A DNA stretch of 64,000 nucleotides from a virus: UHGV virus genome UHGV-0086135; one strand, written 5' to 3'. Positions 1,919-42,944 of this stretch are shown one piece after another. Each line of letters opens with the position of its first letter. Position 1 is the first letter of the stretch. The notes under the pieces were generated by a model. The model was not told the DNA's origin. It saw only the letters and a program-made list of their open reading frames with translations, and did not search any database. The translations under genes and the position numbers were made by a program.

Positions 1919-3247
1919 ATGCAACTGAATAATCGCGATTTAAAAAGTATCATTGATAATGAAGCATTGGCTTATGCTATGTACACGGTTGAAAATCGTG
2001 CTATCCCAAATATGATTGATGGATTTAAGCCAGTTCAACGATTTGTTATTGCTCGAGCTCTTGATTTGGCACGAGGAAATAAAGATAAGTTTCACAAACT
2101 CGCTTCTATTGCAGGTGGTGTAGCGGACCTTGGATATCATCATGGTGAAAACTCTGCACAAGACGCGGGCGCTTTGATGGCTAACACTTGGAATAATAAC
2201 TTTCCTTTGTTAGATGGTCAAGGAAACTTTGGTTCTCGTACCGTTCAAAAAGCAGCGGCAAGTCGTTATATTTTTGCTCGTGTAAGTAAAAATTTCTATA
2301 ACGTATATAAAGATACTGAATATGCTCCGGTACATCAAGATAAAGAACACATTCCGCCTGCTTTCTATTTGCCTATTATTCCTACTGTTCTTCTTAACGG
2401 TGTTTCCGGTATTGCAACTGGTTATGCAACTTACATTCTTCCTCATAGCGTTTCTTCTGTCAAGAAAGCTGTATTGCAAGCTCTTCAAGGAAAGAAAGTA
2501 ACTAAACCGAAGGTAGAATTCCCAGAATTTCGCGGTGAAGTCGTTGAAATTGACGGTCAATATGAAATTCGTGGAACGTACAAGTTTACTTCACGAACTC
2601 AAATGCATATCACTGAGATTCCGTATAAGTATGATCGTGAAACTTATGTGAGTAAAATCTTAGACCCGCTTGAAGATAAAGGCTTCATTACGTGGGATGA
2701 TGCTTGTGGTGAGCATGGTTTTGGCTTCAAAGTTAAATTCCGTAAAGAATATTCTTTGAGCGATAACGAAGAAGAACGCCATGCAAAAATTATGAAAGAC
2801 TTCGGGTTGATTGAGCGTCGTTCCCAGAATATTACTGTTATTAATGAGAAAGGAAAGCTACAAGTTTACGATAACGTAGTTGATTTAATCAAAGACTTCG
2901 TTGAAGTTCGTAAAACTTATGTCCAAAAACGAATTGATAACAAAATCAAAGAAACTGAATCGGCATTTCGTTTAGCCTTTGCCAAGGCACATTTCATTAA
3001 GAAAGTAATTTCAGGTGAAATTGTTGTACAAGGTAAAACTCGCAAAGAACTGACCGAAGAACTTTCTAAAATTGATATGTATTCTTCTTATGTTGATAAA
3101 CTAGTTGGAATGAATATTTTTCATATGACTTCCGACGAAGCAAAGAAACTTGCTGAAGAAGCTAAAGCTAAAAAAGAAGAAAACGAATATTGGAAAACTA
3201 CTGATGTAGTTACAGAATACACCAAAGATTTAGAGGAAATCAAATGA
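1919..3247 (+). CDS. 52: DNA topoisomerase II medium subunit gp52 (442 aa)
   Basis: ORF track; same length as T4 gp52; topoisomerase A-subunit-like sequence; conserved position. Confidence 0.93.
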   Translation: MQLNNRDLKSIIDNEALAYAMYTVENRAIPNMIDGFKPVQRFVIARALDLARGNKDKFHKLASIAGGVADLGYHHGENSAQDAGALMANTWNNNFPLLDGQGNFGSRTVQKAAASRYIFARVSKNFYNVYKDTEYAPVHQDKEHIPPAFYLPIIPTVLLNGVSGIATGYATYILPHSVSSVKKAVLQALQGKKVTKPKVEFPEFRGEVVEIDGQYEIRGTYKFTSRTQMHITEIPYKYDRETYVSKILDPLEDKGFITWDDACGEHGFGFKVKFRKEYSLSDNEEERHAKIMKDFGLIERRSQNITVINEKGKLQVYDNVVDLIKDFVEVRKTYVQKRIDNKIKETESAFRLAFAKAHFIKKVISGEIVVQGKTRKELTEELSKIDMYSSYVDKLVGMNIFHMTSDEAKKLAEEAKAKKEENEYWKTTDVVTEYTKDLEEIK

Positions 3248-3393
3248 GTCCATTCATAGGTATTACAAGCGCTGCATTAGTATCTGGTGGCATTTTACTG
3301 GCGGGTTTAGGTGTTGTTCCTGCCGTAGCAGGAGGTCTTCTTGCGTTCGGAATTCAACGTGTTATCATGATAGTTATCACAGTCATGCAGTAA
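3244..3393 (+). CDS. small hydrophobic protein (49 aa), hypothetical
   Basis: ATGA overlap with gene 52 stop; glycine/alanine-rich TM-like peptide; followed by a terminator. Confidence 0.4.
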   Translation: MSPFIGITSAALVSGGILLAGLGVVPAVAGGLLAFGIQRVIMIVITVMQ

Positions 3394-3397
3394 TTTT

Positions 3398-3427
3398 AGG
3401 GAGAGCCGAGGCTCTCCCTTTTTTATT
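3398..3427 (+). terminator. rho-independent terminator
   Basis: Hairpin AGGGAGAGC-CGAG-GCTCTCCCT followed by TTTTTTATTT. Confidence 0.7.
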
Positions 3428-3450
3428 TCAAAAATTTTTTTCACAAAACG

Positions 3451-3480
3451 GTTTACAACCAAAGCATACTGTGGTACTAT
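3451..3480 (+). promoter_or_regulatory. T4-type early promoter
   Basis: GTTTAC...ctgtggTACTATacaactatc preceded by an AT-rich UP-like region. Confidence 0.65.
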
Positions 3481-3529
3481 ACAACTATCAAATAAATGAA
3501 CTGAAACAAACAACCCGGAGATACAAAAA

Positions 3530-3757
3530 ATGAAATTTAAAATCGAAAACGAAATCGTTAAAGCTAAAAATGCTCTGACTGCTAACAAACTGGTTGTAGA
3601 TGGTATTGAATATGATATCTGTGGAGTTCGTGAAGAAAAACCTGGTGTTCTGACTTTCTTCACAATGATTTTTAAATTTAAAGGTGACACAGAATTCAAA
3701 CAGTTTGATTTTGCCCATGAAGACGAAATCGAAGTTCGTAATCTGAACATTAAGTAA
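3530..3757 (+). CDS. hypothetical early protein (75 aa)
   Basis: ORF track; own early promoter and GGAG Shine-Dalgarno. Confidence 0.55.
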   Translation: MKFKIENEIVKAKNALTANKLVVDGIEYDICGVREEKPGVLTFFTMIFKFKGDTEFKQFDFAHEDEIEVRNLNIK

Positions 3758-3796
3758 GTACTTTATTAGAGCTCTTGAAAAAGAGTGCAAAAAAGT

Positions 3797-3825
3797 GTTT
3801 ACTTCTGCTTTAAACATGATACTAT
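3797..3825 (+). promoter_or_regulatory. T4-type early promoter upstream of motA
   Basis: GTTTAC, 17-bp spacer, TACTAT; GGAG Shine-Dalgarno downstream. Confidence 0.65.
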
Positions 3826-3862
3826 AGACCTATCAAATAAATGAACTGAAACGGAGATTAAA

Positions 3863-4498
3863 ATGTCTAAAGTAACTTACATCATCAAAGCTTCTAACGA
3901 TGTTCTGAATGAAAAAACTGCTGCGATTTTAATTACCATTGCTAAGAAAGATTTCATTACAGCTGCAGAAGTTCGTGAGGTGCATCCAGATTTAGGTAAC
4001 GCAGTAGTTAATAGTAATATTGGGGTATTGATTAAAAAAGGTCTGGTAGAGAAATCTGGTGATGGATTAATCATTACAGGAGAAGCTCAGGATATTATTT
4101 CAAATGCAGCAACTTTATATGCACAGGAAAATGCTCCTGAACTACTGAAAAAACGAGCAACTCGTAAAGCTCGTGAGATTACTTCCGATATGGAAGAAGA
4201 TAAAGACCTTATGCTAAAACTTTTAGATGAAAATGGATTTGTTCTTAAAAAGGTTGAAACTTACCGCAGTAACTATCTTGCTATTTTAGAAAAACGCACT
4301 CATGGAATTCGCAATTTTGAAATTAATAACAATGGAAATATGCGAATTTTTGGATACAAAATGATGGAACATCATATTCAGAAATTTACTGATATCGGAA
4401 TGTCATGTAAAATCGCTAAAAACGGTAATGTGTATCTTGACATTAAACGCTCGGCAGAAAACATTGAAGCGGTAATCACCGCAGCATCTGAACTGTGA
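3863..4498 (+). CDS. motA: middle-transcription activator MotA (211 aa)
   Basis: Sequence MSKVTYIIKASNDVLNEKTA... matches recalled T4 MotA over its full length; own early promoter. Confidence 0.95.
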   Translation: MSKVTYIIKASNDVLNEKTAAILITIAKKDFITAAEVREVHPDLGNAVVNSNIGVLIKKGLVEKSGDGLIITGEAQDIISNAATLYAQENAPELLKKRATRKAREITSDMEEDKDLMLKLLDENGFVLKKVETYRSNYLAILEKRTHGIRNFEINNNGNMRIFGYKMMEHHIQKFTDIGMSCKIAKNGNVYLDIKRSAENIEAVITAASEL

Positions 4499-4508
4499 GG
4501 AATAAATA

Positions 4509-4838
4509 ATGAACAAGTTAGAAATTGTTAATGAACTTCGTCGTTGTGCAGAACCCACTCAAGAGGGGTGGGATATCTGGTATCATGGAGCTTATCTTGG
4601 AACTATCGTAAAGATTAAGACTGGTAAATACATGATTATTCGTGAAAGTAAAGATGCTCCAGTAGGTATTCGCAATAATTTTATGGCGGCGATAAGTTCA
4701 TTTACGGATGCAGCTTACGAAATTTACCTTGCCGATTATAAAGAATTCCAGGAATCTCAACCAGTTATTCGCTCAATTGGTGTTAACAAAGCTCAACAGA
4801 AAACTCTGTGGCAGCGTATTAAAGGATGGTTTAAATGA
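4509..4838 (+). CDS. hypothetical early protein (109 aa)
   Basis: ORF track; ATG after GAGG. Confidence 0.55.
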
Positions 4839-5296
4839 ACCCATTTATTAATCGTTTAAAAATGCTGAATGTTCCTTTATCTCGTGAAACTCCAGAAAGT
4901 CTTGTTGAAAAATTTAAAGCACATGGTTATAAATGCACAGAAGAAGATATTCTGAAAGAAGTTCCTGAAATCTGTTGGCAGACCGCATACTGGGATGAAA
5001 ACCAAAAGTATCAACGACGAATTGTTTGTGCCGCCAACCGTTTTAAATTAAAAGATGGACGAACTCTTGTTATTCCAGGTGCTCGTCATTATTCTAAAGA
5101 TATGGCAGAAGTTTTAGATGTAGTTAAACCCCAATTAGTTACTCAGCAAGTTTGTGATGATGACCAAGGGTTTATTGATCAGTATAGCAATTACTGGACA
5201 CGTGAAGAAGCAATGATTATTGCAACTTACGCCGGACAAGTACGTATTGAACGCGGTGGTAGTGAAAAAGAACTTTACTCTGAGGACCTTTACTAA
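4835..5296 (+). CDS. hypothetical early protein (153 aa)
   Basis: ORF track; ATGA coupling to upstream ORF. Confidence 0.55.
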
Positions 5297-5592
5297 TGAA
5301 TATTAAAAAGTTTCAAATTGATGGAATTAAGAATCAAATCCAGGCGTTGGAATATGCCAATAAAATGATGTCAACTAATTGGGGAATTTATGCCAATGAA
5401 CCGGCATTTCAGTTCTGTGATATGGAATTCACCAAAAAGCTCGTAGGAAAAGATTATGTATGTCCATTTAGTTCTCCAGTAAATGGAATGTTAAAACCTG
5501 CTTTACGCGATCTTTATATTGCGATGAACGAAGAAATGATAAAAGAACTAAAACGTCAACTAAAGGTTATTCAATTTGGCCAGGGAAATTAA
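5296..5592 (+). CDS. hypothetical early protein (98 aa)
   Basis: ORF track; TAATG coupling. Confidence 0.5.
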   Translation: MNIKKFQIDGIKNQIQALEYANKMMSTNWGIYANEPAFQFCDMEFTKKLVGKDYVCPFSSPVNGMLKPALRDLYIAMNEEMIKELKRQLKVIQFGQGN

Positions 5593-5794
5593 TTCAAAAT
5601 CTGATTATTTTAATTCTCTTAATGATAAAGATAAAAATTTAATAAGACATTTTATCGTTGAGATGGGATATACTGACACACGTGATTTAAGAGAACATAT
5701 ATTTGAATGTGGTGTAGCTAAAAAGTTTTCATTCACATGCAATTGTTTAAGAGAGGTAATTCAGCACTATGAACAATTTAGTCGCAAAACATAA
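5576..5794 (+). CDS. possible small ORF, start uncertain (track start is TTG; first in-frame ATG near 5663)
   Basis: ORF track only; weak ribosome-binding context. Confidence 0.25.
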   Translation: MAREINSKSDYFNSLNDKDKNLIRHFIVEMGYTDTRDLREHIFECGVAKKFSFTCNCLREVIQHYEQFSRKT

Positions 5795-5877
5795 TTTTAA
5801 TAAAGCTTCTGTCCATAAGGATAAGAAGAAAGCGTTTAAAGAATCTAATCGCAAACAGAAACATAAGGGGAAGGTCT

Positions 5878-6156
5878 ATGATTATTGATTCTCAGTCTGT
5901 GGTTCAATACACAATTAAAATTGATATTCTAGAAAAGCTATACAAGTTTCTACCAAATTTATACCACTCAATTGTTAATGAATTAGTTGAAGAACTACAT
6001 CTTGGGAATAATGATTTCTTGATTGGAACTTATAAAGATAACTCAAAAGCAGGATATTTTTACGTAATTCCAGCTCCAGGAAAAAGTATTGATGATGTAT
6101 TAAAAACTATAATGATTTATGTCCTTGATTATGAAATTGAAGATTATTTCGAATGA
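5878..6156 (+). CDS. arn: Arn, anti-restriction inhibitor of McrBC (92 aa)
   Basis: Sequence MIIDSQSVVQYTIKIDILEKLYKFLPNLYHS... matches recalled T4 Arn; position next to asiA. Confidence 0.85.
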   Translation: MIIDSQSVVQYTIKIDILEKLYKFLPNLYHSIVNELVEELHLGNNDFLIGTYKDNSKAGYFYVIPAPGKSIDDVLKTIMIYVLDYEIEDYFE

Positions 6157-6305
6157 GTCATAATCTTGAAAAAGTAATCGAGCATAATGTAGCTCAGGAA
6201 CGTAAGTCGTTCAAGGAATTCGTAGAAAAAATTTTTGAAGAAAATACCACAGACCAGTTTACAAATCAAACGTCTGATGATATTATAGCAAAGTCAACTA
6301 ATTGA
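6153..6305 (+). CDS. small acidic ORF (50 aa), hypothetical
   Basis: ATGA overlap with arn stop; hand-translated MSHNLEKVIEHNVAQERKSFKEF... Confidence 0.3.
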   Translation: MSHNLEKVIEHNVAQERKSFKEFVEKIFEENTTDQFTNQTSDDIIAKSTN

Positions 6306-6317
6306 GTGGTATAGTTA

Positions 6318-6590
6318 ATGAATAAAAATATTGATACAGTTCGTGAAATTATTACTGTTGCGTCTATTTTGATTAAATTTTCCAGAGAAGATATTGTTGA
6401 GAATCGTGCTAATTTTATTGCATTTCTGAATGAGATTGGAGTAACGCATGAAGGTAGAAAGTTAAATCAGAATTCATTCCGTAAAATTGTTTCTGAATTA
6501 ACTCAAGAAGATAAGAAAACCCTCATCGACGAATTCAACGAGGGTTTTGAGAGTGTATATCGATATCTAGAGATGTATACAAACAAATAA
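6318..6590 (+). CDS. asiA: anti-sigma70 factor AsiA (90 aa)
   Basis: Sequence MNKNIDTVREIITVASILIKFSREDIVENRANFIAFLNEIGVTHEG... matches recalled T4 AsiA. Confidence 0.95.
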   Translation: MNKNIDTVREIITVASILIKFSREDIVENRANFIAFLNEIGVTHEGRKLNQNSFRKIVSELTQEDKKTLIDEFNEGFESVYRYLEMYTNK

Positions 6591-7247
6591 TTATTTAGCC
6601 CTTCCTAATATTCTGGCCGCCTGAGCACATATTGATTCAAGGCGGTCATTACTTATATGATCATTTCTATACCAGTACATGGTTATTGTTCCAGCATAGA
6701 TATTATCCAAATTAAAATATGGACAACTGTACATGTAATTTATTTCTGGAGTAGGCTTTTTAGTTGGTAAAAAAGCAAATTTTGAGTTTGAATAATAATG
6801 ACGTCCATTTAAATGAACTGCATATTCATCCATAGTTTTATCAACAGGATATCCTCCAAGTGATTTTTCACTTATTGTTGAAGGTAATTTTCCTTCATAT
6901 GCTATAATATCAACAAAATAGTTTAAGTTTTTAGGGCGGAAAGAATACACCGCACTAAAGTCTGCCTCAGATGATATATGAACTATCTGGAGTTGTTCCA
7001 GGGCGACAGATTCAAAGCGTGCATTTCTTTCCTTTTCAATAATTTCACTGTATGTTTCATACTTTGATTGCTTATAGTACTCAAAGAAACTATCTCCCCT
7101 ATACCAAACAATCGCCATTATAAACAAAAGAATTACGACAGCTACCCGGGAAGCAAGAACTTTCCCGGTAGCGTTATCTTTGAACAAGCGATCTAGAACA
7201 CCAAACAGAATACCAGAGGGCGAAAATGATATTCTAGGTGCTGTCAT
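6591..7247 (-). CDS. t: holin T (218 aa)
   Basis: Sequence ...PRISFSPSGILFGVLDRLFKDNATGKVLASRVAVVILLFIMAIVWYRGD... matches recalled T4 holin; single TM domain. Confidence 0.95.
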   Translation of the reverse strand: MTAPRISFSPSGILFGVLDRLFKDNATGKVLASRVAVVILLFIMAIVWYRGDSFFEYYKQSKYETYSEIIEKERNARFESVALEQLQIVHISSEADFSAVYSFRPKNLNYFVDIIAYEGKLPSTISEKSLGGYPVDKTMDEYAVHLNGRHYYSNSKFAFLPTKKPTPEINYMYSCPYFNLDNIYAGTITMYWYRNDHISNDRLESICAQAARILGRAK

Positions 7248-7265
7248 AGACCCTCCTTTTAAGGG

Positions 7266-7273
7266 TATTTATT
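7266..7273 (-). promoter_or_regulatory. possible variant late promoter (AATAAATA) upstream of holin t
   Basis: One mismatch to TATAAATA; location between gene 38 stop and t start. Confidence 0.25.
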
Positions 7274-7277
7274 CAAA

Positions 7278-8060
7278 TTATACTCTTGGACCATATATTG
7301 CTCCAACGTTTTGCCATGTCGGTGTAGACCCTATGACGGCATAACCAGCAGCTCCGCCATCGTATTCATATCCTTGACCACGAATATTACATCTACCTCC
7401 TGCGGAGCCAACTTCACCACCAGACCCGCCGTTGTAGATACCGTTCACAGACCCTGCGCCTGGCGCAGAAATAGTACCAGCAGTTGCTCCTGATTGCATA
7501 TCAATAGATCCGCCCGGTGCGCCAAACGGACGACCGCCGCCACCGCCAAAGGTCAATCTCATTTGTGAAAAAGGAGAATAATACCCGCCGCCACCGCCGC
7601 CACCGCCGCCAGCAATAGCTCCGCCATTATTAATTCTTAGTCTCCCACCAATATCATTTTGAATACAATGACCCCCAGCTGAGCCAGGACTATTGCTACC
7701 GCCATTCCCGCCACGGCCATACATCGTTACACCATGTATGTTCAACTGAACATATTCATTCGGTGTATCTCCGTACATGAAGAATAAAGGAACATCTTTA
7801 GAATATGATACTAAATCTCCAGTGATATTAAACACTATAGGTGCACTACCTGCCTCAAAACATCTATCTCGGAACCATTGACCATTGAAGTTATGGTCTG
7901 CTCCAAGCGTGTGAATAATTTCTCTTGAGCGACCTGCAAATTGACTCATCCAGCAAGGAATACCCAATCTTAATTGACCAGCCGCTTGACTCATCCATCG
8001 TTGTCCTGTTTCATTTACGGATGAACTACCAATCCAACCAGGAACACCAACTACTGCCAT
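7278..8060 (-). CDS. 38: long tail fiber tip adhesin gp38, T2/T6-type (260 aa)
   Basis: Inner ATG of track ORF (track start is TTG); N-terminus [13 protein letters not shown]; several poly-glycine tracts; directly downstream of gene 37. Confidence 0.85.
7490..7680 (-). repeat. 38: glycine-rich low-complexity segments of the gp38 adhesin
   Basis: Coding runs of GGN codons giving [11 protein letters not shown] and GGGGRPFG tracts on the minus strand. Confidence 0.6.
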
Positions 8061-8092
8061 AATTTTCTCCAAAGGGGCAAAGCCCCTTGTTG

Positions 8093-11041
8093 TTAGAATT
8101 TAAAATAATTACTAATTTTGTGAGCAATTTTAGTGAAGAAGGGTGTTTTCAATTCTTTAATTTCTTCGCTCATTTCCTGAATGGCCTTAATTAAAAGAGC
8201 ATTCACAGCAGAGTTAGAAATTGTTAGAACATCAGATCCATCGACTTCAACTTTAGATACAGCTTCCGGTAATTCTTTTTCAAGATCCTGAGCAATAATA
8301 CCAACTTCATGTTTAATAACACTACGGTCTTTAATAGACTTAACTTTATCGTAAGTATAAACTTTCAGTCGGCAAACTTTTTCAACCGCTCCGTTTTCTA
8401 GCTCTTTTTTATTAATCTTAAGACGACCATCGGAACGAATATACACATCATTAAAACTTCCATTTCCTGGTGCATAAAAGAACCCATCATAGTGGAACTC
8501 GAATATCGCGTTAGGATGACCAGCATCAGGAGAAGCCTCCGCAGATCCAACACGAATAATTGCTTGTCCCCAATTATTAGGGATACGACGAATACCAAGA
8601 TCGACGGCAGTTACATACCCTTGATTGGTGACTACACTTCTTCCTTTAATAATTGGATAATAGCTATCTGATCCAACATAACCATGATCGACGAATATTG
8701 GCGCTTCTACTCGCCATTGGTTGCCCCAATCACCTGGTTGACTAGCGGTCCAACGTTCACCATGAACATATAATCGAACGTTATTAACATGAGCCATTTC
8801 GACGCCTTTTGGACTTAGCGTGATATCCCCTGCGTTTGTAATGTATACACCAGCATTAGTAGCATAACTATAGAACGCTAATCCATTATCATCACCACCC
8901 TTACCAATATACCAGTTACCAGTCCCGTCTACGTCACCACGAATATGCAAAGAATTACTAGCAGGTGCTGATAATACAATAGAATCACCTGGGCTTTGAA
9001 TTGTCAAGCGTCCGGTCATAATATCACCGCCTTTACCCACGCGAGTATTCAAAGCAGCGTCTAAATTGGTTGCATTATTATATTTCTTCCAGATAGAACC
9101 AGCAATATTACCATCGGTATTAAGGAATGCTGCTCCAGCATAAACTCGACTTTGTGACATGAATCGGCCCGACGGCAAGAAACGCCATGTAGCTAATTCA
9201 GTGGCTGTAGTTCCAGTAGCGGATAAATCACCCTGAGCAACGATACGATATTCTGAACTAGCAATATCCATGCCAGAAGCCATAGTAATATTTGTTACAG
9301 TGTTTTTCTGTTTAACAATTGGCGCAAACTGGTTTTTATTTGAATCGTCAATGGCCTGATATAATGGCGCAATGGTAGTATTCTGATTTGCGTAAGTATT
9401 AGAACCAGAACCGCTAGCAGGAGCTTGAATATATGCTCCTGGAGCAAGTGAAATTTTCTGATTAGCGCCAAGATTAACAGCAGCAGTGATATTCAGCAAT
9501 CCTCTAAAGTTTTGTTGAGCAGTCCAAGTATGTGATCCGTCTTCAAGAACAACACGACGAACTGTGCAAGTTCTATTTCCTGAATTACCGAATACACGAA
9601 CGACAAAATAACGGTAGTTTGTCTGGGATACAGTACCACGCCAAACCTGAACAGTACGGCCTGTGCTAGTATGTTCGCTAGGACCGACGGAAAACATAAC
9701 CAAGTTTCCATCAATCGTCCCCCAATTCATATTTGCTGGCATGTTCTTTATTTTGTTCAAAGGAACGCTAAACATACTACCAGGGACAAAATCAAAGGTT
9801 TGCCAATCTAACTCCGCTAATTGAGCTTTAATACCACCCATACCCAAAGTAATTGGCAGAGAATAAGATGTATATACTTCGTTCCATGTACCCCAAACAC
9901 CATTAGTGTATGCACGCTCAAAAATACGTCCGCGAGTAGTTGTACCTGTTCCGGCAGTAGTAAATTTTTGGAAAATAGCACCACCAGAAGCACGCTGTTT
10001 AACTTCTAGCAAACCAATAATAACGGCCGGTAAACCTTCACCTGTAGGGCAGTTAATAACGGCATCAGTGCCTAAAATATTATATAACCCAGGAGTTTTA
10101 AAATCATTCAGGTTTCCATCATAGAAAGTCGCTGGTGTGACATTACCGACTTGTTGCCACGGTCCCCATTTAGGAGCAGTAGCATCCCACGCGGCAGTAA
10201 GACAGCGAGTATAAACAACACCAAACATGGTTGTATATCTTTGCGTACGAGAATAGCTTCCCCCTTCATATACTTCCAAAAGACCTTTAGCTGACGACCC
10301 CTCTTCTGGGAAATTTCTGTCAAAGGTGGCAATGGAATTTGAACTATTCCTCCACAAGCCAAAGTGTTCAGCACCTCCTAGATCATTAAGATCAATTGTT
10401 GTTGACAGTGGACGAGTACCGGATTGAATATTTCGCCACACACTCCACGGACCATTTACTCCGTTCCATGTAGCAGTCAAGGAACGAATATAAACATTTC
10501 CGTATCTGGTTGTATATCTCTGAGTACCAGCAAATTGACCGGCCACAAATACTTCTAGCACACCTACAGCATTTTCTTCTGGAAATTTATTTGCTGGTTG
10601 AGCGTTGGTTGAAGTTGCTTTCGACCAAACTCCAAGATATTCTTCAACAGGCCCATACTCATCTAAATTAGCATCAACCGGTAATTCGCCGTTATTTTTT
10701 ATAAACGTTGTGCTATTGACATTTATGTCAGATGGAGTTAGCGTGATATCTTTTGACCCATCAAAGGATATACCATTAATTTTTCGTGCTGTTTTTAATT
10801 TCGTTGCAGTTGCAGCGTTACCTGTTAAATTTCCAATTATATTTCCATTAACAGTTAAAGAACCATCAATTGTTCCTCCATATTTTAAACCTAATTCTAT
10901 AACACTGCCTGAGTCATCTTTTGTGAAAATTGTTTTATCTTTTAAATTAATAGCCAATTCACCTTCGGCTAATACTGAAGCAGCAGGACGTTGACCTGCA
11001 GTTTTGCTTCTTTTAAATTGTATTTGTTTTAAAGTAGCCAT
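8093..11041 (-). CDS. 37: long tail fiber distal subunit gp37 (982 aa)
   Basis: N-terminus [13 protein letters not shown]...[17 protein letters not shown] matches recalled T4 gp37; C-terminal part diverged. Confidence 0.93.
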
Positions 11042-35998: not shown

Positions 35999-36029
35999 GA
36001 GGACTCCTTCGGGAGTCCTTTTTTATTTT
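35999..36029 (+). terminator. rho-independent terminator
   Basis: Hairpin GGACTCC-TTCG-GGAGTCC followed by TTTTTTATTTT. Confidence 0.7.
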
Positions 36030-36105: not shown

Positions 36106-36438
36106 ATGAAAACGATTAATCTGAACGCTGCAGTTAAAACTAAATGCTTCAATGGTAAATATGATGAAACTATGTGGTTCTTAATGGCAGTTGAAGGTGA
36201 TATTATTGAAGTAGAAACAACAGAAGGTATGGGAACAGATTTCACCTTTACAATTCAAGTTCATAATTTCTTTACTGGTTGGATTTATGAATTGAATACA
36301 GTAATCGTTGGAAAAATTGAACAAAATGAATTGGGTGAATGGTATTATGTTACAGCTCGCCAACGTGCCGAACGCTTAATTGAGAAGATGAAAAAAGTTG
36401 GTAAACTTGACATGCAGCACTGGAAAGTAGTAAAATAA
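36106..36438 (+). CDS. hypothetical early protein (110 aa)
   Basis: ORF track; GGAG Shine-Dalgarno; own early promoter. Confidence 0.5.
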   Translation: MKTINLNAAVKTKCFNGKYDETMWFLMAVEGDIIEVETTEGMGTDFTFTIQVHNFFTGWIYELNTVIVGKIEQNELGEWYYVTARQRAERLIEKMKKVGKLDMQHWKVVK

Positions 36439-36912: not shown

Positions 36913-37200
36913 ATGTTTATGACTACTTATTTTGATACTCGCAAAAATTTCTGTGAAGTGGTTTTCTCTAAGGCGCCTAAAGACCTTCCTGCTCATTTGC
37001 AACCTACCAGTGAATCGATTAAAAACTATGTTAATGTAGTATGTCCTTTAGAGTTCCGTACTGTAAATGGGCGCGATACTTTAGCTATCACTAAACTCAA
37101 TCGTGAAATTGACATTGACCCTTCAATTGCGCGTGAAATTAATATTTCTGATATTGGCGGCGGTAATGTTAAATCGCACGGTTTTCAGATGAGGTTCTAA
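36913..37200 (+). CDS. hypothetical protein (95 aa)
   Basis: ORF track; ATG after GAGG. Confidence 0.45.
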   Translation: MFMTTYFDTRKNFCEVVFSKAPKDLPAHLQPTSESIKNYVNVVCPLEFRTVNGRDTLAITKLNREIDIDPSIAREINISDIGGGNVKSHGFQMRF

Positions 37201-37397
37201 TGAAATTCTTTTTAGGTCAAACTGTTGAATTAAAGGGAGTTGGTATACCTGGATTAATTTCTAAGGTTCTACCTCCATTTAAATGGAGTGGTATTCAAAT
37301 AAAAGAAGCTTATATTGTTTCCTGGGTAGATGGAAATGAAGACCTTCGTATGGGTGATGAATTATCTCCTATTTACGGATTAAAGGAATTAGTATGA
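37200..37397 (+). CDS. hypothetical protein (65 aa)
   Basis: ORF track. Confidence 0.4.
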   Translation: MKFFLGQTVELKGVGIPGLISKVLPPFKWSGIQIKEAYIVSWVDGNEDLRMGDELSPIYGLKELV

Positions 37398-37600
37398 ATA
37401 TAATTAATAAGATTTTTGGAATTCAATACATTAAAGTCACATATAAAGTAGCGTATAAAGGTCCGTATACCGATGAATATGAAGAGCCACAAGTTCAGTC
37501 TATTATATTAGAAAAGGACCCTAACTGGCCAGTTGAATTTCGTCTTCCTTGCTATGGTCATTGGGCTGATGTTGAAATTATAAGTATTGAAAATGTCTGA
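37394..37600 (+). CDS. hypothetical protein (68 aa)
   Basis: ORF track. Confidence 0.4.
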   Translation: MNIINKIFGIQYIKVTYKVAYKGPYTDEYEEPQVQSIILEKDPNWPVEFRLPCYGHWADVEIISIENV

Positions 37601-38051
37601 GCTAGAGATAAGAAGCAATTTTAAATGGCCATCATGTGCATTAAGTAATTTCGCCCAATGGCCTTTCGTTATGGATGGTATTCAATTTGGAGGTCTAGAA
37701 GGATTCCTCCAAGGGTGTAAGGTGAAAAATGTTGAACAACAACGTCGTATATTTGGGTTATCCGGGCTTGCCGCCCAACAAGCCGGAAGGTCTTATGCTA
37801 GAGCTCAGGACCGTGGGACCCTCTTCTGGCTTGGAGTTCCGTTTTCAAGATATTCACCAGCGTGGAAAGAATTATACACAAATGCATATTTTGAAGCAGC
37901 GATCCAAAACAGAGGCTTTCGTGATGCATTACAAGCCTCAAAAGGAAAAGTTTTGAAGCACAGCATGGCTAGTGGTCTAACAAAAGATGATACAATACTA
38001 ACCGAAGCTGAATTTATTGATGTGTTAAACCTATTAAGAGACTCTCTATGA
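37593..38051 (+). CDS. NADAR/YbiA-like (DUF1768-type) protein (152 aa), putative ADP-ribose-processing enzyme
   Basis: Inner ATG (track start TTG at 37587); core LSNFAQWPFVMDGIQFGGLEGFLQGCK resembles the recalled NADAR signature SNFA.WP...DG...E..FQ..K; locally GC-richer. Confidence 0.45.
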   Translation: MSELEIRSNFKWPSCALSNFAQWPFVMDGIQFGGLEGFLQGCKVKNVEQQRRIFGLSGLAAQQAGRSYARAQDRGTLFWLGVPFSRYSPAWKELYTNAYFEAAIQNRGFRDALQASKGKVLKHSMASGLTKDDTILTEAEFIDVLNLLRDSL

Positions 38052-38887
38052 AGCCTACTATTTTAACTGATATTGATGGAGTATGTTTAAGCTGGCAATC
38101 AGGACTTCCTTATTTTGCTCAGAAATATAATCTTCCGTTAGAACATATTTTAAAAATGATCCAAGATGAGAAATTTATTTCTCCAGGTAAACTCTTTAAT
38201 TGTGATGAAGAACTTGGTGTCAAGCTAATTGAAAAATACAATCGATCAGATTTTATTCGTTACTTGTCTCCATATAAAGATGCCCTGTGCGTAATTAACA
38301 AACTAAAAGAAGATTATAATTTTGTAGCTGTTACAGCATTGGGTGATTCTATTGACGCTCTGCTGAATCGTCAATTTAATTTGAATGCTCTTTTTCCTGG
38401 TGCCTTCTCAGAAGTAATGATGTGTGGTCATGATTCTTCAAAAGAAGAGTTGTTCAAAAAGGCAAAAGAGAAATATAACGTAATTTGTTATATTGACGAT
38501 CTTGCTCACCACTGCGACCACGCGAGTGAAATATTAAATGTTCCGGTTTATTGGATGGCTCGAGGAGAGCGTGACAATATTCCAAAAACTGCGCAGCGAG
38601 TTTATACATGGAATGATGTAGAAAATAAGCTTTTTTCGCCGAAGGAAAATAAAGAAAGTTTTGATAGTGAAAAAGCTATAAAAGATTTAATTGAGAAGAT
38701 GGTTAAAAACGATTCTTTTCCTTGGAACACTACCTGGAGAACGCCTGGATTTAATCCTTATAATCATCTATATCATCCATATCAGACACATCCGTTTCAG
38801 ACATGGAACTACATTAAACCTGGTGGCATAGAGTATTTGTATAATAGACCTACTAGCGGTGATAATATTTTCCAAGGAGCATTCTAA
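38048..38887 (+). CDS. HAD-superfamily hydrolase-like protein (279 aa), possible nucleotidase
   Basis: ORF track; N-terminal HAD motif I ILTDIDGV; position next to DNA ligase. Confidence 0.5.
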   Translation: MKPTILTDIDGVCLSWQSGLPYFAQKYNLPLEHILKMIQDEKFISPGKLFNCDEELGVKLIEKYNRSDFIRYLSPYKDALCVINKLKEDYNFVAVTALGDSIDALLNRQFNLNALFPGAFSEVMMCGHDSSKEELFKKAKEKYNVICYIDDLAHHCDHASEILNVPVYWMARGERDNIPKTAQRVYTWNDVENKLFSPKENKESFDSEKAIKDLIEKMVKNDSFPWNTTWRTPGFNPYNHLYHPYQTHPFQTWNYIKPGGIEYLYNRPTSGDNIFQGAF

Positions 38888-39156
38888 TGTTTGTTGTTCA
38901 CACTATTTATGAAAATGAAGGTAATACTACACGTGATTACGGTCACGTAAATCAATTTTTTAGATGCAATCCAGAATTCCGAGCTCAAAAAGACGAACGA
39001 ATTTTTAAAAAATGTGTAGAGCAAGGTTTCATTTACGTTAAGCACTGGATGCAAGGAAATAAAGTTAGAACTACATATCATAGGTCTTTGCCTGAGCTTA
39101 ATGATGAATTGATTTATAATAGAGCTGTAAACCAAACCTTGAAGGATGAGCAATGA
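38887..39156 (+). CDS. hypothetical protein (89 aa)
   Basis: ORF track. Confidence 0.45.
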   Translation: MFVVHTIYENEGNTTRDYGHVNQFFRCNPEFRAQKDERIFKKCVEQGFIYVKHWMQGNKVRTTYHRSLPELNDELIYNRAVNQTLKDEQ

Positions 39157-40613
39157 TTCTTAAAATTCTGAATGAAATAGCATCTATTGGATCAACTAAG
39201 CAGAAGCAAGCAATTCTTGAAAAGAATAAAGATAATGAATTGCTTAAACGAGTATATCGTCTGACTTATTCTCGTGGGCTACAGTATTATATCAAGAAAT
39301 GGCCTAAACCTGGTATTGCTACCCAGAGTTTTGGAATGCTGACTATTACCGATATGCTTGACTTCATTGAATTCACGTTAGCTACTCGGAAATTAACTGG
39401 CAATGCAGCAATTGAGGAATTAACTGGATATATCACTGATGGTAAAAAGGATGATGTTGAAGTTTTGCGTCGAGTTATGATGCGAGATCTTGAATGCGGT
39501 GCTTCAGTATCTATCGCAAATAAAGTTTGGCCAGGTTTAATTCCTGAACAACCTCAAATGTTGGCAAGTTCTTATGATGAAAAAGGCATTAGTAAGAATA
39601 TTAAATTTCCAGCTTTTGCACAGTTAAAAGCAGATGGAGCTCGGTGTTTTGCTGAAGTCCGAGGTGATGAATTAGATGATGTTCGTCTTTTATCACGAGC
39701 TGGTAATGAATATCTAGGATTAGATCTTCTTAAGGAAGAGTTAATCAAAATGACCGCTGAAGCTCGCCAGATTCATCCAGAAGGCGTGTTAATTGATGGC
39801 GAATTGGTATACCATGAGCAAGTTGAAAAAGAGCCAGAAGGCCTAGATTTTCTTTTTGATGCTCCTGAAAATAGTAAAGTTAAAGAGTTTGCCGAAGTAG
39901 CTGAATCGCGTACTGCTTCTAATGGAATCGCCAATAAATCTTTAAAGGGAACTATTTCAGAAAAAGAAGCTCAATGTATGAAGTTTCAGGTCTGGGATTA
40001 TGTCCCGTTAGTAGAAATATACGGTCTTCCAGCATTTCGTTTGAAGTATGATGTACGTTTTTCTAAACTAGAACAAATGGCATCAGGATATGATAAAGTA
40101 ATTTTAATTGAAAACCAGATAGTAAATAACCTAGATGAAGCTAAGGTAATTTATAAAAAGTATATTGACCAAGGTCTTGAAGGTATTATTCTCAAAAATA
40201 TCGATGGATTGTGGGAAAATGCTCGTTCAAAAAATCTCTATAAATTTAAAGAAGTAATTGATGTTGATTTAAAAATTGTAGGAATTTATCCTCACCGTAA
40301 AGACCCTACTAAAGCAGGTGGATTTATTCTTGAATCAGAGTGTGGAAAAATTAAAGTAAATGCTGGTTCAGGCTTAAAAGATAAAGCCGGTGTAAAATCG
40401 CATGAACTTGACCGTACTCGCATTATGGAAAACCAAAATTATTATATTGGAAAAATTCTAGAGTGCGAATGCAACGGTTGGTTAAAATCTGATGGCCGCA
40501 CTGATTACGTTAAATTATTTCTTCCGATTGCGATTCGTTTACGTGAAGATAAAACTAAAGCTAATACATTCGAAGATGTATTTGGTGATTTTCATGAGGT
40601 AACTGGTCTATGA
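39153..40613 (+). CDS. 30: ATP-dependent DNA ligase gp30 (486 aa)
   Basis: Sequence MILKILNEIASIGSTKQKQAILEKNKDNELLKRVYRLTYSRGLQYYIKKWPKPG... matches recalled T4 ligase; adenylation motif KADGAR. Confidence 0.97.
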   Translation: MILKILNEIASIGSTKQKQAILEKNKDNELLKRVYRLTYSRGLQYYIKKWPKPGIATQSFGMLTITDMLDFIEFTLATRKLTGNAAIEELTGYITDGKKDDVEVLRRVMMRDLECGASVSIANKVWPGLIPEQPQMLASSYDEKGISKNIKFPAFAQLKADGARCFAEVRGDELDDVRLLSRAGNEYLGLDLLKEELIKMTAEARQIHPEGVLIDGELVYHEQVEKEPEGLDFLFDAPENSKVKEFAEVAESRTASNGIANKSLKGTISEKEAQCMKFQVWDYVPLVEIYGLPAFRLKYDVRFSKLEQMASGYDKVILIENQIVNNLDEAKVIYKKYIDQGLEGIILKNIDGLWENARSKNLYKFKEVIDVDLKIVGIYPHRKDPTKAGGFILESECGKIKVNAGSGLKDKAGVKSHELDRTRIMENQNYYIGKILECECNGWLKSDGRTDYVKLFLPIAIRLREDKTKANTFEDVFGDFHEVTGL

Positions 40614-40827: not shown

Positions 40828-40850
40828 GAATAAACACTAGAGAGGATATG

Positions 40851-42944
40851 ATGGAACTCATTACAGAATTATTTGACGAAGATACTACTCTTCCGATTAC
40901 AAACTTAAATCCAAAGAAGAAAATACCGCAAATTTTTTCAGTTCATGTTGATGGCGCAATTGAACAACCAGGCTTTCGTTTATGTACCTATACATCTGGA
41001 GGTGATACTAATCGCGATTTAAAGATGGGCGATAAAATGATGCATATTGTTCCTTTTACATTAACTGCTAAAGGTTCAATTGCTAAATTAAAAGGTCTCG
41101 GTCCAAGCCCAATTAATTATATCAATTCAGTTTTTACAGTTGCAATGCAAACGATGCGTCAGTATAAAATTGATGCCTGTATGCTCCGTATTCTTAAGTC
41201 TAAAACTGCTGGTCAAGCTCGACAAATTCAACTTATTGCTGATAGACTTATCCGCAGTCGTTCAGGTGGCAGATACGTCCTTCTTAAGGAACTCTGGGAT
41301 TACGATAAAAAGTACGCATATATTCTTATACATCGCAAAAATGTATCGCTAGAAGACATTCCAGGAGTTCCGGAAATTAGTACCGAGCTCTTTACTAAAG
41401 TTGAATCGAAAGTCGGTGATGTTTATATCAATAAAGATACTGGAGCTCAAGTAACTAAAAATGAGGCAATTGCAGCATCTATTGCACAAGAAAATGATAA
41501 ACGTTCTGACCAAGCTGTAATCGTTAAAGTTAAAATTTCCCGTAGAGCAATTGCACAAAGTCAGTCATTAGAATCTTCTAGATTTGAAAGTGAATTATTC
41601 CAGAAGTATGAATCTACCGCAGCTAATTTCAATAAACCTGCTACAGCTCCTTTAATTCCCGAAGCAGAAGAAATGAAGCTTGGAATTAATTCATTAGCTT
41701 CTAAAACTAAGGCAGCAAAAATTATTGCTGAAGGAACTGCAGATGAACTTCATTATGACTATAAATTCTTTTCAAAAAGTGAGGTTAATGAAGTTTCTGA
41801 AAAAATTAAAGATGTAATTCTTAATGCGATTAAAAATGAACCAACTACTTCAATAAAATGTTTAGAGAAATACGCAACAGTTGTTAATCAATTATTTGAA
41901 GAATATAAAGATAACTGGCTTGATAAACATAATAAAACTCGTAAAGGACAAACAGATGAAGTCTGGGAAGAAATAACTAAAAATTCCTGGAACGCAGCAA
42001 AAACTAAATTCCTCAAAAGAATGATTTATAGTTTTTCTGGAATTGGTGCAGGTCCAATGATTGATATTACTATTGCTCGTGATGGTTCTAAATATACTCC
42101 ATCACAAAAGCGCGGCATTAGAGAGTATTGTGGTTCAGGATATACTGACATCAATAATCTTCTTTTAGGTCGCTACAATCCAGAACGATATGAGGTAATG
42201 AGTGAAAAAGAAATTGAATCTGCGATAAATAATTTAGATTCAGCCTTTGAAAATGGTGACCGTATACCAGAAGGCATTACAGTTTATCGTGCTCAAAGCA
42301 TGACTGCTCCTATATACGAAGCACTAGTTAAAAATAAAGTGTTCTATTTCAGAAATTTTGTATCTACTTCTTTAACTCCTATCATTTTTGGACGTTTTGG
42401 AATTACGCATGCTGGTATTGGTCTTTTAGAACCAGAAGCTCGTAATGAATTAACAGTTGATAAAAATGAAGAAGGAATAACTATTAATCCAAATGAAATA
42501 AGAGCGTATAAAGAAAATCCTGAATACGTTAAAGTTCAAATAGGATGGGCAATTGATGGAGCTCATAAAGTTAATGTTGTATATCCAGGAAGTCTCGGAA
42601 TAGCAACAGAAGCTGAAGTTATTCTACCACGCGGATTGATGGTCAAAGTTAATAAAATAACTGATGCTTCTAATAATGACGGAACAACATCTAATAATAC
42701 AAAACTCATTCAAGCTGAAGTTATGACTACGGAAGAACTCACCGAATCGGTAATTTATGACGGTGACCGTCTAATGGAAACTGGTGAAGTAGTTGCAATG
42801 ACAGATGATATTGAAATAGAAGACAGAGTTGACTTTGCATCATTTGTTTCATCAAATGTTAAACAAAAAGTAGAATCATCTCTTGGAATTATTGCATCTT
42901 GCATAGATATTGCAAACATGCCTTACAAGTTCGTTCAAGGATAA
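40851..42944 (+). CDS. alt: ADP-ribosyltransferase Alt (697 aa)
   Basis: N-terminus MELITELFDEDTTLPITNL...GFRLCTYTSGGDTNRDLKMGDKMMHIVPF matches recalled T4 Alt; ART-like motifs (R in VYRAQ, FVSTSL, EAEVIL); late promoter upstream. Confidence 0.9.
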   Translation: MELITELFDEDTTLPITNLNPKKKIPQIFSVHVDGAIEQPGFRLCTYTSGGDTNRDLKMGDKMMHIVPFTLTAKGSIAKLKGLGPSPINYINSVFTVAMQTMRQYKIDACMLRILKSKTAGQARQIQLIADRLIRSRSGGRYVLLKELWDYDKKYAYILIHRKNVSLEDIPGVPEISTELFTKVESKVGDVYINKDTGAQVTKNEAIAASIAQENDKRSDQAVIVKVKISRRAIAQSQSLESSRFESELFQKYESTAANFNKPATAPLIPEAEEMKLGINSLASKTKAAKIIAEGTADELHYDYKFFSKSEVNEVSEKIKDVILNAIKNEPTTSIKCLEKYATVVNQLFEEYKDNWLDKHNKTRKGQTDEVWEEITKNSWNAAKTKFLKRMIYSFSGIGAGPMIDITIARDGSKYTPSQKRGIREYCGSGYTDINNLLLGRYNPERYEVMSEKEIESAINNLDSAFENGDRIPEGITVYRAQSMTAPIYEALVKNKVFYFRNFVSTSLTPIIFGRFGITHAGIGLLEPEARNELTVDKNEEGITINPNEIRAYKENPEYVKVQIGWAIDGAHKVNVVYPGSLGIATEAEVILPRGLMVKVNKITDASNNDGTTSNNTKLIQAEVMTTEELTESVIYDGDRLMETGEVVAMTDDIEIEDRVDFASFVSSNVKQKVESSLGIIASCIDIANMPYKFVQG

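Follow-up and report, generated by a model that had tools for sequence, protein, structure and literature searches.

NADAR proteins have been described in bacteria, eukaryotes and phages. The founding NADAR/DUF1768 member, E. coli YbiA (2B3W), is a riboflavin-intermediate N-glycosidase, and its housekeeping gene belongs to an operon under LexA control (PMC11125620). The gene of another, DarG1 (8BAT of G. lovleyi and the NADAR of E. coli C7; Schuller et al. 2023, PMC11543638), adjoins a DarT toxin gene. In phages, the resistance of T-even phages to DarTG1 was mapped to T4 gene 30.3, which was renamed adfN (anti-DarT factor NADAR), by Johannesman et al. (Nat Commun 2025, PMC11825919), and AdfN was reported there to be necessary as well as sufficient for countering DarTG1 in plaque assays. 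Recombinant T4 gp30.3 hydrolysed guanine-ADP-ribose on DNA in vitro, while thymine-ADP-ribose was not hydrolysed (Suskiewicz group, PMC11125620), and in a 2025 preprint, transposon insertions in T4 30.3/adfN were neutral on E. coli K-12 and completely lost on a DarTG1 host. Here we compare with these systems an open reading frame (ORF) located at 37593-38051 (+) in a 64,000-nucleotide stretch of the virus genome UHGV-0086135 (the window), and find it to be orthologous to T4 gene 30.3, adfN.

The ORF runs from an ATG start at 37593 to a TGA stop ending at 38051 and encodes a 152-aa product; TTG at 37587 is an alternative upstream start, and ATG is the start used in the T4 annotation. That a genuine 152-aa gene lies here, as claimed in the preliminary description of this DNA, was borne out by a match far beyond chance to Pfam PF08010 (Phage_30_3, 'Bacteriophage protein GP30.3'), which scored 233.5 bits (E=7.8e-70) against a curated cut-off of 36 bits and covered profile positions 1-138 of 138, and by 98% identity to T4 gp30.3 (149 of 152 residues). 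The three substitutions, R11K, K107R and I125M, are all conservative. Length, genomic slot, overlaps with neighbouring genes, the residues E36, K43 and H123, and the C-terminal helix are the same in both proteins, and the source is another Tequatrovirus. Positions 37000-39200 match 686 phage records and are 97.9% identical to Escherichia phage EPIMRB01. At the nucleotide level, 11 of 15 differences from T4 were synonymous, which indicates purifying selection on adfN. The copy of phage EO1 encodes a protein 100% identical to that of the window. With tblastn, the gene was found in 1,511 of 50,697 phage records, with at least 80% of the query covered in 1,504 of them, and the carriers include phages of Escherichia, Klebsiella, Aeromonas, Acinetobacter, Vibrio, Rhizobium and Ralstonia. 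The PHROGs match of the product was phrog_652, of unknown function, and most of the approximately 1,500 phage records with 30.3 say 'hypothetical protein', so that naming the gene has some value for annotation.

In order to relate this family to NADAR enzymes, 97 homologues were gathered, of which 62 full-length ones were aligned. When scanned singly, 25 of the 62 family members matched the Pfam NADAR profile PF08719 (best E=1.5e-7), and the profile built from the 30.3 family found E. coli YbiA among PDB sequences (hmmsearch, E=0.0017). Alignment of the family with E. coli K-12 YbiA by hhalign gave a probability of 94.2% (E=1.1e-7) over residues 15-122. An AlphaFold2 model generated from the alignment of 62 sequences was of high quality, with a predicted local distance difference test score (pLDDT) of 93.7 and a predicted template modelling score (pTM) of 0.88, and presented a helical core between two small beta-hairpins. 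Fold matches of this model, searched by Foldseek, were exclusively NADAR structures, YbiA among them, and beyond the three top-ranked structures all matches had E>2. The structural comparison with YbiA that the preliminary description had proposed as a check therefore came out in its favour, and the remote homology of the 30.3 family to NADAR is solid when judged by profiles and by structure.

The core quoted in the preliminary description, LSNFAQWPFVMDGIQFGGLEGFLQGCK, corresponds to residues 17-43 and contains the E-x-[FY]-x-Q-x-x-K helix of the NADAR superfamily with its catalytic Glu and Lys. E36, Q40, K43 and H123 were invariant in 62 of 62 aligned sequences, and hhalign placed E36, Q40 and K43 opposite YbiA E48, Q52 and K55, while a gapless extension of that alignment by one residue set H123 opposite YbiA E125. 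The codon of the catalytic glutamate Glu36 lies at 37698-37700 (+), that of the catalytic lysine Lys43 at 37719-37721 (+), and that of His123 at 37959-37961 (+). In PMC11825919, E36 and K43 of T4 AdfN were regarded as conserved residues central to catalysis and selected for mutation; E36A abolished activity, and AdfN(E36A) served as the inactive comparison in an in vitro DNA de-ADP-ribosylation assay. The last-strand residue is known to be Glu in YbiA-type, Asp in DarT1-linked and His in phage gp30.3 NADARs (PMC11125620, PMC11543638, PMC12945103), and the window protein, with H123, carries the hallmark of the phage type.

The comparison with other characterized proteins separates this gene from its closest relatives in several respects. 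YbiA shares approximately 20% identity with the window protein and carries Glu125 at the position of His123 in the phage protein, and the NADAR of P. nicotianae (8BAU, with ADP-ribose) is a eukaryotic protein of 189 aa with a last-strand Glu. DarG1 has an N-terminal extension (219 aa) and a catalytic Asp in the last strand, whereas the window protein consists of the core only (152 aa) and carries His123 in the position of that Asp. Instead of a DarT toxin, the neighbours of the window gene are 30.4 and 30.2, and adfN, without an adjacent toxin, is thus an orphan. In PMC11825919, AdfN(Bas32) and AdfN(Bas60), which were acquired independently, share the activity and the anti-DarTG1 role of the T4 type; they belong to archaeal-like and bacterial non-YbiA clades and, unlike the T4 type, work without T-even infection. 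Two further anti-DarT factors of T-even phages are known. AdfM (T4 tk.4) has been proposed to be an enzymatic eraser (2025 preprint) and differs from AdfN in having a macrodomain fold and countering the thymidine-modifying DarT2. AdfA binds and blocks DarT1 and, unlike AdfN, has no enzyme activity (PMC11825919).

Taken as a whole, we consider it nearly certain that the ORF encodes an AdfN orthologue, a NADAR ADP-ribosylglycohydrolase that counters DarTG1 on phage DNA. Identity, fold, catalytic residues and C-terminus were seen in the present analysis, and enzyme activity and counter-defence are taken from the publications on T4. According to this reading, AdfN would be a minimal, core-only NADAR-fold ADP-ribosylglycohydrolase, probably transcribed together with the 30.x genes that precede the DNA ligase gene. 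The host DarT1 toxin would ADP-ribosylate guanines of phage DNA and thereby block replication, and AdfN would cleave the N-glycosidic bond that joins ADP-ribose to N2 of guanine via Glu36, Lys43 and His123. Removal of ADP-ribose would give back replicable DNA and cancel the abortive-infection defence of DarTG1, and AdfN would thus act as an orphan antitoxin whose target is the modification, not binding of the toxin. The NADAR-type removal of guanine-ADP-ribose against DarT that had been suggested from the window's letters is supported by the profile and fold link, the published activity of T4 30.3 and the DarTG1 plaque assays. The preliminary description had also raised, as a point against itself, the case that the ORF is conserved among T-even phages and has another assigned function; the gene is indeed a conserved T-even gene, and the function assigned to it is the one predicted. 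The wet-lab experiments that had been suggested are already published for the T4 protein, which is 98% identical. What 30.3/AdfN looks like, which reaction it carries out and what it does for the phage are already known, and the window gene is an ordinary intact copy. A sequence-only reading of a weak motif thus recovered a real anti-defence enzyme, with no new biology beyond the characterised T4 30.3/AdfN.

Several observations weigh against this reading. When the window protein was searched alone, no match to PF08719 was found at E<=1, NCBIfam gave no match, and among PDB sequences there was a chance match alone (E=0.55). The resemblance of the motif to NADAR is not detectable by a plain hidden Markov model scan of the single sequence, and the NADAR link of 30.3 needs profiles or structure. 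The proposed check against PF08719 hence succeeded for the family, which is linked to NADAR/YbiA by profiles, and failed for the single sequence. The missing match reflects sensitivity, since Pfam holds PF08010 as a separate model. Unlike DarG1, T4 gp30.3 failed to relieve the toxicity of DarT1 in E. coli cells that were not infected (PMC11125620, PMC11825919), which makes a model of the enzyme acting alone incomplete. Finally, the activity is known from the T4 protein and protection of the phage from DarTG1 in vivo from the T4 and T2 alleles, and the window allele, with R11K, K107R and I125M, is predicted from its sequence to behave like T4 AdfN.

T4-type AdfN was fully effective only during T-even infection (PMC11825919), which suggests a phage cofactor. 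We regard it as unlikely that T-even AdfN needs a phage partner, for which the translationally coupled neighbours 30.4 and the HAD-like 30.2 would be candidates, or has a second natural substrate, for example RNA carrying ADP-ribose or adducts of phage transferases. Conservation of the order 30.3-30.2-ligase-alt down to 43% protein identity fits this idea and is no demonstration of it. Since 30.2 and 30.3 are near-universal in Straboviridae (1,440 and 1,511 records), their co-occurrence is uninformative. A conserved partner gene was also sought near distant homologues in two metagenomic phage contigs, and the neighbours there were unrelated, being a small protein with a GGDEF domain, a Phage_g100 protein and one with weak resemblance to T5 dNMPase. 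The last of these was considered as a relative of gp30.2 and rejected, as there was no detectable similarity (E=12). In one of these contigs, of 82 kb, the distant 30.3 homologue (5001-5468) matches both PF08010 and PF08719, and it lies approximately 1.7 kb downstream of a 165-aa GGDEF-domain gene (2819-3316) in an otherwise unannotated context.

Other explanations for the presence of this gene concern the substrate of its product. The 30.3 protein might mainly hydrolyse soluble molecules derived from ADP-ribose, for example immune signals or by-products of NAD+ chemistry or RNA repair, instead of ADP-ribosylated DNA, with an anti-DarT effect that is secondary. YbiA-type NADARs do act on small riboflavin intermediates (PMC11125620, PMC11543638); however, later experiments demonstrated the removal of ADP-ribose directly off DNA, disruption of the gene costs fitness specifically with DarTG1, and 30.3 is not needed on E. 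coli K-12 that lacks DarTG1, all of which makes this explanation very unlikely. Another candidate is that the protein edits ADP-ribosylation by the phage's own Alt, ModA or ModB, for example off-target ADP-ribose on nucleic acids. Iyer and Aravind described NADARs co-expressed with ADP-ribosyltransferases as early genes in T4-like phages, alt is still located near 30.3 in Acinetobacter phage Acj61, whose 30.3 protein is no more than 43% identical, and NADARs strip guanine-ADP-ribose from RNA too (PMC12945103). Against these points, Alt is annotated as a protein ADP-ribosyltransferase acting on RNA polymerase, whereas the NADAR activities considered here (PMC11125620, PMC12945103) are all on nucleic-acid bases, the shared neighbourhood may merely be the fixed gene order of Straboviridae, and the 2025 preprint reported no phenotype without DarTG1. 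The preliminary description had offered, as one option, a part for 30.3 in phage ADP-ribosylation chemistry together with the Alt genes; we found no evidence for such a functional tie, and we hold an editing role of this kind to be extremely unlikely.

A different objection is that the window ORF could be a decayed or inactive copy that contributes nothing. Such alleles do exist in nature. The DarTG1 sensitivity of phage RB69 was ascribed to the insertion of 1 nt, through which the final 15 residues are lost (PMC11825919), and we confirmed the insertion after codon 137 in the RB69 sequence (locus at 8226-8681 of the stretch examined), where 131 of 137 residues are identical to the window protein and are then followed by ACT TGA, compared with ACC GAA in the window. 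Past the lesion, the +1 frame of RB69 still encodes EAEFIDVLNLLRDS. Other short alleles were seen as well: the match of phage AV115 covers residues 1-144, and several database entries are of 86-126 aa. Provided that they are real lesions and do not stem from miscalled starts, their carriers would be predicted to be DarTG1-sensitive. The lesion of RB69 is absent from the window, thus the C-terminal helix predicted by AlphaFold2 at residues 138-151, encoded at 38004-38045 (+), needed for function and lost in RB69, is intact. A full-length ORF with this helix and every invariant residue, three conservative substitutions away from the functional T4 protein and with mostly synonymous nucleotide differences, leaves the probability of an inactive copy next to negligible. 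As all invariant residues and the helix are present, the window allele is predicted to be active, and an intact adfN allele in turn predicts DarTG1 resistance of the source phage.

The gene order in the window is 31, rIII, 30.9-30.4, 30.3 (adfN), 30.2, 30.1 (DUF3045), DNA ligase, alt.1 and alt. The slot of adfN, flanked by 30.4 and 30.2 and followed further downstream by ligase and alt, is the same in T4, RB69, VR5 and Acj61, and annotated T4 30.3 is also 459 nt long with identical overlaps with its neighbours. Upstream, the 68-aa homologue of gene 30.4 (37394-37600, +; phrog_2042 and T4 gene order) overlaps the start of 30.3 with its stop by 8 nt (ATGTCTGA, 37593-37600, +), which implies translational coupling, and downstream, the stop of 30.3 and the start of 30.2 share ATGA (38048-38051, +). 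The 30.2 homologue (38048-38887, +; phrog_420, E=7e-93, and T4 gene order) encodes 279 aa. The gene for ATP-dependent DNA ligase, gene 30, was located at 39153-40613 (+) from its ORF and the annotated features of matching records including T4, and alt, encoding the packaged protein ADP-ribosyltransferase, was located at 40848-42944 (+) from its ORF and the T4 gene order. Placing adfN beside DNA ligase was therefore approximate: the ligase gene is nearby, starting at 39153, with 30.2 and 30.1 in between. The distance of about 3 kb given for Alt was correct, as alt starts 2.8 kb downstream of adfN. In Acj61 (Twarogvirinae), the order rIII-30.3-30.2-ligase-alt is kept (3313-8438 of its locus) at 43% protein identity, so that the module upstream of ligase is an ancient one in Straboviridae. 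The proximity of alt is part of the conserved Straboviridae gene order.

The product of gene 30.2 has HAD-phosphatase-like motifs, TDIDGV near the N-terminus and YIDDL later, and a few GenBank records among the 1,440 phage records with 30.2 homologues label them 5'-nucleotidase or HAD hydrolase. In PHROGs it matched phrog_420 and, weakly, a polynucleotide-kinase PHROG, and it had no match in Pfam, NCBIfam or PDB sequences. Neither the 30.4 nor the 30.2 protein had a Pfam match of any kind, so there was none to DarT/DUF4433.

A promoter and terminator scan of the region gave total site counts not above chance. Two sites were observed upstream of adfN. A strong terminator-like hairpin follows the 30.9 homologue at 35999-36020 (+), with a 9-bp stem (GAGGACTCC...GGAGTCCTT) and then a T-run, and the best sigma-70-like site of the region, TTGACA-18-TAAAAT with 11 of 12 matches, lies at 36407-36436 (+), just upstream of the 30.7 homologue. 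These two elements together may delimit an early transcription unit with adfN.

The 75-aa internal ORF annotated as 30.3' in T4 is also found in the window, at 37729-37956 (+), in the +1 frame inside adfN. Between the window and T4, 8 of 75 amino acids are changed in 30.3' compared to 1 of 77 in 30.3, and the 30.3-synonymous differences land on codon position 2 of 30.3'. Compared with phage VR5, 30.3' is 60% and 30.3 83% identical. In RB69 a stop breaks the internal ORF, Acj61 lacks it, and synonymous shuffling produced an alternative-frame ORF of this length 4% of the time. From its divergence, the RB69 stop, the absence in Acj61 and the shuffling, we judged 30.3' unlikely to be a second gene product under selection.

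The segment had been described as GC-richer than its neighbours. The excess is real and small, with a GC content of 0.416 in adfN compared to a window mean of 0.362 and 0.36 in the flanks. A foreign origin was considered and rejected, as GC at codon position 3 is 0.31 and the ORF is merely at the 90th percentile among windows of the same size, 459 nt. With 0.51, 0.43 and 0.31 at the three codon positions, the excess is confined to the first two positions, not the third, and thus reflects the amino-acid composition of a Gly/Ala/Arg-rich protein. The T4 30.3 gene has the same value (0.418).
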